Origin: a virus
UHGV virus genome: UHGV-0140021
Length of the DNA: 20,318 nt
Reading direction: 5' to 3' (one strand)
The notes under the pieces are model-generated. The model did not search any database. It was not told the origin of the DNA and worked only from the letters and a program-made list of their open reading frames with translations. Of this stretch, positions 6,844-7,833 are shown in pieces. The position numbers and the translations under genes are program-made. How positions within the stretch are numbered: position 1 is the first letter of the stretch; every line of letters begins with the position of its first letter.

Positions 6844-7179
6844 TTACTTGGCGTCGCCACCAAAGCGAACGTTGAAAACACGCGTGGCCATTGAGCGCAC
6901 CTGCTCAACGCCAACGAAACCCAGCGCGCCACCGATAGCGATGGAAAGAGACTGTGGAAGGTTGAAATACTCGAGTGCGGAAACAGCCGTCAGCGTCATG
7001 GCGCCACACATCAACCCTTCCAGCACCATCTTTTTCCAGCCACCGCCGACATACGCAATTCGCAGTACAGCCATCGCTACCGATAAAAGGACGGCACCCA
7101 TTGGCGTATCACCGCGCCACCAGCTATGAAGTAACTCAATTAACTCCGTCCAGGAGTGAGGGTCGTTGTGCATTTTCAT
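6844..7179 (-). CDS. Holin (possible holin/antiholin dual start, MKM...)
   Basis: 111-aa protein with hydrophobic transmembrane segments, first gene of the lysis cassette, GGAGGTGA SD upstream. The N-terminus Met-Lys-Met resembles the lambda S dual-start arrangement. Confidence 0.75.
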   Translation of the reverse strand: MKMHNDPHSWTELIELLHSWWRGDTPMGAVLLSVAMAVLRIAYVGGGWKKMVLEGLMCGAMTLTAVSALEYFNLPQSLSIAIGGALGFVGVEQVRSMATRVFNVRFGGDAK

Positions 7180-7363
7180 GGTCTCTCACCTCCGATAGTT
7201 CGGATGGCGCTGTGTGATGAAAGGAGGATCAGGCTTCACGGGCTGGATTTATCAACAATGCGTATCGAGGATGATTCCCGTGATCCTGAATCAGAACGGG
7301 CTCTGCGCAAGCGCCTGTCGGATTGGGTTATGAGCCGTCCGTCAGTGAGCCCTGAATATGAAA

Positions 7364-7385
7364 AAGGCCACCAGAAGGCAGCCTT
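7364..7385 (-). terminator. Weak hairpin-plus-U-run downstream of the 80-aa moron ORF
   Basis: AAGGC / GCCTT stem (5 bp) with 12-nt loop followed by TTT on the minus strand; weak. Confidence 0.25.
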
Positions 7386-7420
7386 AATAAATGTGGTGTA
7401 CCTATTTATTAATCAGATAG

Positions 7421-7663
7421 TTAAGACTCAAGATCAATTAAATAGCTATTCCCTTTAGACGTAATTCTATTCACTATCCAGCTGTCGTCACAATCAGACG
7501 TACTCTGCACAGCATTTACCAGACCCAACTCAGCGAGATCAGAAATAGCAAAATTCACCGCTTCCGCTGGAATGTGAGGAAGATCAGAAGATTGAATTGT
7601 TTCACGTGGTCCAAGAGCGCTTGCGCGACTCAGAGTTTCGATATGAACAGATGTTAATTTCAT
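7421..7663 (-). CDS. Hypothetical protein (80 aa), moron between the Q terminator and holin; possible small winged-helix protein
   Basis: ORF with AAGGCGG SD, bracketed by a candidate extended -10 promoter (TGTTACAAT, plus 7699-7707) and a downstream hairpin; lower GC than flanking genes. Confidence 0.5.
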   Translation of the reverse strand: MKLTSVHIETLSRASALGPRETIQSSDLPHIPAEAVNFAISDLAELGLVNAVQSTSDCDDSWIVNRITSKGNSYLIDLES

Positions 7664-7741
7664 TATGCCGCCTTTGTGTTGTCGTTTTGCTTGCGGCTAT
7701 TGTAACACATTGATTTTTACGTAGATTGAATGGCCTAGTGC

Positions 7742-7768
7742 AAAAAAAACCCGCTCGGTGGCGGGTTT
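7742..7768 (-). terminator. Rho-independent terminator downstream of the Q-like gene (tR'-like)
   Basis: Minus-strand read: ACCCGC-caccga-GCGGGT followed by eight T. GC-rich 5-6 bp stem, 6-nt loop, long U-run. Confidence 0.75.
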
Positions 7769-7778
7769 CTTAACTCTG

Positions 7779-7833
7779 AACATACAATGCCCATCGTTAA
7801 TGTCAAATATACACAAAAACGGCAACATTGCAA
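7779..7833 (-). promoter_or_regulatory. Candidate late promoter (pR'-like) between Q and the terminator
   Basis: Minus strand carries TTGCAA-16nt-TATATT and an overlapping TTGACA-16nt-TATGTT; either would initiate a short transcript ending at the terminator, as in lambda pR'-tR'. Exact -35/-10 assignment uncertain. Confidence 0.4.

Follow-up and report, generated by a model that had tools for sequence, protein, structure and literature searches.

A discrete, exchangeable cassette encoding a small, predicted winged-helix protein between tR' and the holin of a Citrobacter lambdoid prophage

The Q-to-holin locus and its exchangeable cassette

The stretch of DNA analysed here (hereafter, the window) is the 20,318-nucleotide (nt) sequence of virus genome UHGV-0140021, which is part of a Citrobacter freundii lambda-like (lambdoid) prophage. 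The late genes lie on the minus strand in the order RusA, Rha/ANT, DUF968, antiterminator Q, late promoter, terminator tR', the cassette that is the subject of this study, holin, GH19 endolysin and Rz genes (Table 1). The cassette carries an open reading frame (ORF) of 80 amino acids (aa), and a first-pass annotation of the sequence had described it as a self-contained moron, i.e. an extra unit with its own promoter, gene and hairpin, inserted between the Q-dependent terminator and the holin. The elements it named are all in place on the minus strand: the ORF with the quoted translation, the promoter-like motif, the Shine-Dalgarno sequence and the hairpin.

The limits of the unit are set by alignment with two IMG/VR contigs that lack the ORF, L081 and L071, the Q genes of which are 96–98% identical to that of the window and which have the same promoter, tR' and leader (and, in the case of L081, the same holin). 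Both contigs are nearly identical to the window up to the T-run of tR' (~7742), and the near-identity resumes at the T-run of the second terminator (~7366). Between these flanks the window has 372 nt (7741-7370), whereas L081 and L071 have an unrelated filler of ~131 nt that closes with a hairpin of its own. Judged by this clean replacement relative to the ORF-less contigs, 7741-7370 is a discrete, exchangeable cassette, and the alignment makes the interval of 7364-7740 given by the first-pass annotation the true boundaries of an insertion or deletion.

The presence of the gene is patchy at this one position among close relatives. A family member is found in 10 of the 80 IMG/VR contigs that have a Q at least 78% identical to that of the window. 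When Q is at least 96% identical, the ORF is found in 8 of 18 contigs, and in one IMG/VR contig both Q and the ORF are identical to those of the window; the remaining 10 have different cargo – 178-aa and 61-aa proteins, a ~178-aa membrane-like protein, or a 64-aa protein – or filler. The base composition is likewise deviant: the GC content is 40.9% for the cassette and 41.6% for the ORF as compared to 51.9% for the window, in agreement with the lower GC noted earlier for the ORF, and the cassette falls in the lowest 0.4% of 372-nt windows. Given the clean replacement, the patchy presence and the deviant GC content, the cassette matches, as far as its sequence shows, the published definition of a moron (PMC2629481), and the idea of a self-contained unit is further supported by the promoter-like motif and, usually, a downstream hairpin travelling with the gene.

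The expectation that lambdoid phages usually run from pR'-tR' straight into the holin gene proved too simple: across the prophages compared, the Q-to-holin gap is a commonly occupied, hypervariable cargo slot of Enterobacteriaceae lambdoid prophages. In all of the contexts that we examined (~15 distinct ones), the gene is flanked by a Q gene on one side and a holin gene on the other. Its Q neighbours belong to three families (PF03589, PF06323 and DUF1133), and the lysis cassettes combine Phage_holin_3_1 with GH19, Phage_holin_2 with lysozyme, or Phage_holin_8 and 3_7 with GH108, GH19 or peptidase M15. Next to related Q genes, the slot may contain 256–270-aa proteins, an 82-aa protein, a 63-aa winged-helix protein together with a methyltransferase, a reverse-oriented 136-aa gene (in HK225), a 171-aa gene (in an E. 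coli prophage), or no cargo. The nmpC/lc genes of DLP12 and PA-2 are further cargo of this gap. The stx genes of Stx phages occupy the same slot, preceded by the constitutive PR' and tR' and followed by the lysis cassette, and cargo in this position, lying downstream of PR'/tR', is co-transcribed with the late genes after Q antitermination (PMC7547250, PMC8065619). The cassette described here differs from the stx and nmpC cargo in that its product is a predicted cytoplasmic 80-aa winged-helix protein rather than a toxin or a porin, and in that a terminator separates it from the holin.

Other occupants of the slot deserve a brief description. The 63-aa winged-helix-like protein, which gives weak DprA_WH and TrmB matches, is encoded at L015 3543-3733 (Klebsiella phage Kp4866-6) and L028 4518-4709 (Phytobacter), where Q is 79–80% identical to that of the window and the gene is followed by a DNA methyltransferase; the protein is not detectably related to the 80-aa family (hhalign probability 0.15%). 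Loci L041, L042, L054, L055 and L035, which carry the E. coli-type 89-aa subfamily, have two cargo genes in the slot: behind the 89-aa member come a hairpin that lacks a T-run, a gene for a 268-aa protein whose C-terminal half is hydrophobic (phrog_30208), and then the holin. A PADLOC search with five other slot cargo proteins returned nothing.

Table 1. Coordinates of the cassette, its elements and its flanking anchors in the window.
Feature	Position	Strand	Basis and remarks
Exchangeable cassette (moron): promoter block, leader, ORF, terminator stem	7741-7370	minus	alignment with L081 and L071; GC 40.9%
80-aa ORF, ATG start; predicted acidic winged-helix protein (isoelectric point 4.5)	7663-7421	minus	
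Putative promoter block, conserved, TTCAATCTACGTAAAAATCAATGTGTTACAAT; its 3' end is the extended -10 TGTTACAAT	7730-7699	minus	comparison with L035
Extended -10 candidate TGTTACAAT	7707-7699	minus	motif scan
Leader, 35 nt, CA-rich tract	7698-7664	minus	sequence; contains Shine-Dalgarno AAGGCGG 7674-7668
Intrinsic terminator (predicted), AAGGCTGCC-TTCT-GGTGGCCTT + TTTTT	hairpin 7385-7364, T-run end 7361	minus	9-base-pair (bp) stem, 4-nt loop
Late antiterminator Q, 276 aa; left anchor of the slot	8680-7850	minus	Pfam PF03589 Antiterm, E-value 8.5e-47
Late promoter region, pR'-like	7833-7779	minus	consensus scan; function inferred from lambdoid architecture
pR' candidate 1, TTGCAA / TATATT	7833-7828 / 7811-7806	minus	consensus scan
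pR' candidate 2, TTGACA / TATGTT	7806-7801 / 7784-7779	minus	consensus scan
tR'-like intrinsic terminator, AAACCCGC-CACCGA-GCGGGTTT + T5	7768-7742	minus	8-bp GC-rich stem, 6-nt loop
Holin leader, outside the cassette	7360-7180	minus	cargo-independent conservation
Window-type 65-nt extension	~7360-7296	minus	also in ORF-less L081 and L071, hence flank and not cassette
Conserved holin leader TTCAGG(A/C)TCACGGGAATCA...CCCGTGAAGCCTGA, then CCTCC...GGAGG around the holin ribosome-binding site	~7295-7180	minus	comparison
Holin, 111 aa; right anchor of the slot	7179-6844	minus	Pfam PF05106 Phage_holin_3_1, E-value 6e-32

The gene, its family and its predicted fold

The pattern of substitutions identifies the ORF as a real gene under purifying selection: the ratio of non-synonymous to synonymous substitution rates (dN/dS) is 0.26–0.44 in pairwise comparisons with homologues that are 65–84% identical. 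The 80-aa protein itself is identical to a 'hypothetical protein' of Citrobacter freundii. Profile searches returned just 5 clusters at 50% identity from 1.8 billion representatives and 44 clusters at 90% identity from a set of 5.8 billion, the latter from Citrobacter, E. coli, Klebsiella and Kosakonia only and all labelled 'hypothetical'; all 44 clusters are thus from Enterobacteriaceae. The family comprises five deep subfamilies that are 31–47% identical to the window protein and have the same length and start. Searching a phage collection yielded one distant match only, a tblastn search against plasmids yielded no match, and a scan of genome contigs with the close-family alignment yielded nothing.

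The clearest annotation is the full-length match to PHROG 32916, in which residues 1–77 align to positions 1–77 of the 89-position profile (phrog_32916, E-value 3.2e-19; 1e-23 for P0009), although, as this PHROG family carries no annotation, membership is silent on function. The match to Pfam DUF2513 (PF10711), the family of B. subtilis YjcQ (PDB 2HGC), scores 22.7 bits (E-value 1.3e-4), which is below the gathering threshold of 29.6 bits required for membership, and the window protein is shorter than the 100-position model. The other subfamilies, at 16.7–21.5 bits, are likewise below the threshold, and some close homologues have a precomputed weak PF10711 match. No Pfam match above threshold was found for the 80-aa protein, NCBIfam gave nothing for it, and the PADLOC-DB defence models gave no match at E-values up to 1 for either the window protein or P0009. 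Searching the literature with DUF2513, the E. coli accession and locus tag, and the PHROG number found no papers.

The first-pass annotation had proposed homology searches and structure prediction as a check on the protein, in which it saw a helix-wing-like segment and no assignable motif. The searches found the 44 clusters, and the prediction gave a winged-helix fold. AlphaFold2, run with a 13-sequence alignment, returned a mean predicted local distance difference test (pLDDT) score of 89.2 and a predicted template modelling (pTM) score of 0.79, with helix 5–15, a short strand or helix, helix 33–45, a beta hairpin (49–53 and 62–67) and helix 69–79. The family profile aligns to the winged-helix core of BldR (E-value 0.002). 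As modelled, the product is a winged helix resembling the MarR core, MarR- or PadR-like, and it has the winged helix-turn-helix core of MarR proteins. Other hallmarks of MarR/PadR regulators are missing: these proteins are ~140 aa long in total with N- and C-terminal dimerisation helices, whereas the window protein has 80 aa and a single C-terminal helix (69–79), and in place of a basic wing with DxR the window protein has the acidic tip SDCDDS, the tip being acidic or neutral in all subfamilies. Pfam PadR gave no match to the window protein, nor did MarR and MarR_2 at E-values up to 1. By these sequence comparisons, we class the 80-aa protein as a distant, sub-threshold DUF2513 relative and not as a member of the MarR family. 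Fold searches and libraries of defence and annotation models gave no functional lead.

The family is also found in a degraded setting. In E. coli APEC O78 (NC_020163.1; L061 2573-3380) an 89-aa homologue is intact in a decayed prophage, in which the Q gene and a methyltransferase are annotated as truncated pseudogenes; of 5426 complete E. coli genomes, 41 contain this segment at an identity of 95% or more, and 38 of these at 99% or more. An intact homologue beside a truncated Q is an indirect hint that the gene may be of use independently of Q. A separate observation concerns DUF2513 proper: one related Citrobacter prophage (L011 8372-8779) encodes a bona fide DUF2513 protein of 135 aa between the Rz genes and the terminase, another classic accessory position, and also has a 79-aa member of our family in its Q-holin slot.

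Candidate transcription signals and the holin leader

A motif of the form TGNTANAAT lies 26–37 nt upstream of the start codon in 21/21 distinct family versions (as TGTTACAAT, TGTTATAAT, TGGTAAAAT or TGATACAAT), and is thus kept across subfamilies that are merely 31–47% identical. The candidate extended -10 of the first-pass annotation is therefore present in all of these versions, with the reservation, weighed below, that in the window alone it is at chance level. Conservation extends upstream of the motif. When the window is compared with locus L035 of the E. coli 89-aa subfamily, the 32-nt block that ends in the -10 is identical at 29 of 32 bases (our own count), as compared to 61% nucleotide and 46% amino acid identity for the coding sequence and 53% for the leaders; in IMG/VR the block has 19 exact matches, each with a family member downstream. 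A second group, made up of Klebsiella, Kosakonia and metagenomic members, has a different element, TAGCCACTCCAA, upstream of the -10, and this is identical at 18/18 bases between members whose coding sequences are 55% identical. In these comparisons the DNA just upstream of the -10 is more conserved than the coding sequence, and an upstream element that differs between protein subfamilies is what would be expected if the product itself binds it.

The leaders are all CA-rich (with ACAACA-type tracts); in sequence they are unrelated. In the window, GCCGC (7697-7693) could pair with GCGGC (7671-7667) of the Shine-Dalgarno region, and the resulting hairpin (folding free energy, dG, -8.1; z-score -1.0) is not significant; candidate hairpins sequestering the Shine-Dalgarno sequence in the 5' leaders of three subfamilies all have z-scores of about -1 and were rejected as not beyond chance. 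In these three subfamilies (window 7664-7698; L007 5966-6000; L013 3971-4000) the pairing stretch lies right after the -10 or upstream of it, and thus would be contained in the long late transcript and largely missing from a transcript started at the cassette promoter. We also rejected the repeated half-sites TCAAT-N11-TCAAT as an operator: there are four matches in the window versus 1.4 expected, none in a regulatory position.

Downstream of the ORF, the hairpin that had been described as weak is present, and it is not really weak (dG -13.8 kcal/mol, z-score -3.0; z-scores of the terminator folds overall range from -3.0 to -4.5). The alignment with L081 and L071 assigns its stem to the cassette and its T-run and everything beyond to the shared flank. 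A hairpin (dG of -8 or lower) followed by a T-run is found within 130 nt downstream in 16 of the 21 family versions, some of which have tandem terminators.

On the other side of the cassette, the Q homologues of Citrobacter and related prophages are 76–100% identical, and the late promoter region is conserved, together with the initial transcribed sequence TTAACGATGGGCATTGTATG downstream of the pR' candidates, in the company of Q homologues down to 47% identity. The tR' fold has a dG of -16.0 kcal/mol and a z-score of -3.87. In lysogens, transcription from the constitutive PR' is known to stop a short way downstream (PMC7547250). In the window, the corresponding promoter and tR' (7742-7800, minus strand) would accordingly give rise to a short RNA of ~60 nt that is made constitutively in the lysogen, a predicted counterpart of the lambda 6S RNA and of the Stx-phage regulatory small RNA StxS (PMC7547250). 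Scanning the whole window at the gathering threshold with Rfam detected no RNA family.

The stretch between the ORF and the holin had been taken for ~240 bp of AT-rich spacer. This did not hold: the 241 nt from the stop codon to the holin (7420-7180) have 49.8% GC overall, with only the first 35 nt after the stop AT-rich (25.7% GC), and the part outside the cassette (7369-7180) has 53.7%. The end of this stretch next to the holin (~7290-7180) belongs to a conserved holin leader. Copies of this leader are present in HK225, in mEp237, in 83 complete E. coli genomes and in prophages of Klebsiella and Citrobacter, with at least three holin types downstream and any cargo upstream (loci L001, L007, L013, L014, L037 and L060); it has no Rfam match. 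Its segments TCACGGGAATCA...CCCGTGAAGCCTGA could form a long-range stem of 11–12 bp, for which RNAalifold found no compensatory pairs. The 65-nt extension preceding it starts with a partial duplicate of the leader start (ATTCAGGGCTCAC vs ATTCAGGATCAC). At L017 5825-5935, the leader is repeated in front of another holin-like start (ATGAAAATGAAC...), ~1.5 kb further downstream, which suggests a duplicated or stacked entry point into the lysis cassette. Finally, an antisense ORF of 100 aa (7156-7458, plus strand), which covers the holin start together with the leader and the cassette terminator, is open in near-identical relatives only, is not open in L001/L007 types and has no similarity to the reverse-oriented cargo gene of HK225; it is probably spurious.

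Proposed mechanism and alternative readings

On balance, and with modest confidence, we favour reading 7741-7370 as an autonomous accessory cassette (moron) in the cargo slot that extends from tR' to the holin leader. Sigma-70 RNA polymerase would, in the lysogen, initiate at the -35-independent extended -10 TGTTACAAT, with a start at ~7692, and would make a monocistronic message of ~330 nt ending at the hairpin 7385-7361; as this message would stop there, the holin would remain silent. After induction, Q-modified polymerase coming from pR' would pass tR', the cassette and the cassette terminator, and through this read-through the gene would also become the first late gene. More tentatively, the product may be a small, sequence-specific DNA-binding regulator consisting of a MarR-type winged-helix core and one C-terminal helix. 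It may bind the conserved block upstream of its own -10 (autoregulation), a proposal prompted by the block being more conserved than the gene and differing between the protein subfamilies, and it may have a further target in the host or in an incoming phage, to the benefit of the lysogen. A role in lysogenic conversion or superinfection, as the first-pass annotation had it, is a guess.

Several observations weigh against this interpretation. TGNTAYAAT occurs once in the window versus 0.95 matches expected, i.e. at chance level, and a consensus scan recognised no -35 upstream of TGTTACAAT; given these two results, the case for a promoter is made by the comparison across the family and not by the motif itself. 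The right edge of the slot has a terminator whatever the cargo, which makes the cassette's 'own' terminator partly a property of the slot. The strict position of the gene could point to a role in late transcription or lysis, and the co-variation between upstream element and protein subfamily could simply reflect shared ancestry. Lastly, an acidic wing tip where MarR has DxR fits DNA binding poorly, as do the isoelectric point of 4.5 (4.5–6.7 in the family) and the net charge of -6.

The acidity of the protein and the missing DNA-contact motifs are what would be expected if the transcription unit were the same but the product bound a protein and not DNA, acting in exclusion or anti-defence with a host factor, part of a defence system or a protein from a superinfecting phage as partner. 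We regard this as a genuine though unlikely alternative: the best structural and profile matches are to DNA-binding regulators, the subfamily-specific conserved DNA upstream of the -10 suggests a cognate binding protein, and no known defence model is matched.

Less probable again is a late gene pure and simple, the first of the Q-dependent transcript and with no promoter of its own, that has a lytic role, such as tuning late transcription or the timing of lysis, and in which the upstream block would be an RNA or DNA element of the late leader. The ORF does lie on the same strand directly downstream of tR', all contexts place it between Q (of three families) and a holin (of several types), and the insignificance of the -10 alone and the lack of a -35 would be accounted for. 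However, the extended -10 is kept in 21/21 versions at a promoter-like distance despite unrelated leaders, and the ORF is still separated from the holin by a terminator. Phages that share the Q, leader and holin of the window can do without the gene, which is not seen to depend on any one type of Q or holin, and in E. coli an intact copy lies beside a truncated Q.

A more speculative variant, to which we give a smaller chance still, is a position-locked regulator that binds the DNA block directly downstream of tR'. Such a protein may gate read-through from the constitutive late promoter into the lysis genes, or may act in trans on the corresponding region of superinfecting lambdoid phages. This would explain the use of a single slot by all members down to 31% identity, whatever the type of Q or holin, the conservation of the upstream element beyond that of the coding sequence, and the retention of the gene in decayed prophages; if true, the family would represent a novel type of immunity or exclusion factor acting from the late operon. 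Finally, a chance ORF in non-coding spacer, with no product, might be suspected from its shortness, its annotation as hypothetical everywhere and the lack of a Pfam match above threshold, and is effectively refuted by the dN/dS of 0.26–0.44, the conservation of start and length in 44 clusters down to 31% identity, the confident fold prediction and the phrog_32916 match (E-value 3e-19).

Returning to the autonomous cassette, the arrangement is that of a well-formed, ordinary kind of moron. Like the known lambdoid morons (the Hendrix/Juhala concept; lambda bor and lom; the P22 'ant moron'), it is patchily present in near-identical phages, has a deviant composition and a candidate promoter and terminator, and lies in the late operon without a role in morphogenesis or lysis (PMC2629481). 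It differs from them in that the family occupies one slot, whereas they are scattered, in that conservation of the upstream DNA element exceeds that of the gene, and in that its expression from the prophage is a prediction from sequence. What goes beyond the routine is that the family is seen only in one slot, that the DNA upstream of the gene is better conserved than the coding sequence itself, and that nature has provided empty-slot relatives as controls.

The cassette is thus a cleanly delimited, comparatively validated moron in the slot that carries the Shiga toxin genes in Stx phages. It defines a small family of predicted winged-helix proteins, known from 44 clusters in prophages of Citrobacter, E. 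coli, Klebsiella and Kosakonia, and supplies testable parts in the form of the promoter block, the terminator and the natural 'empty-slot' controls. Should its product not be a prophage-expressed regulator or exclusion factor, the gene would be routine accessory cargo; if it is one, the family would add to the genes that benefit the lysogen.
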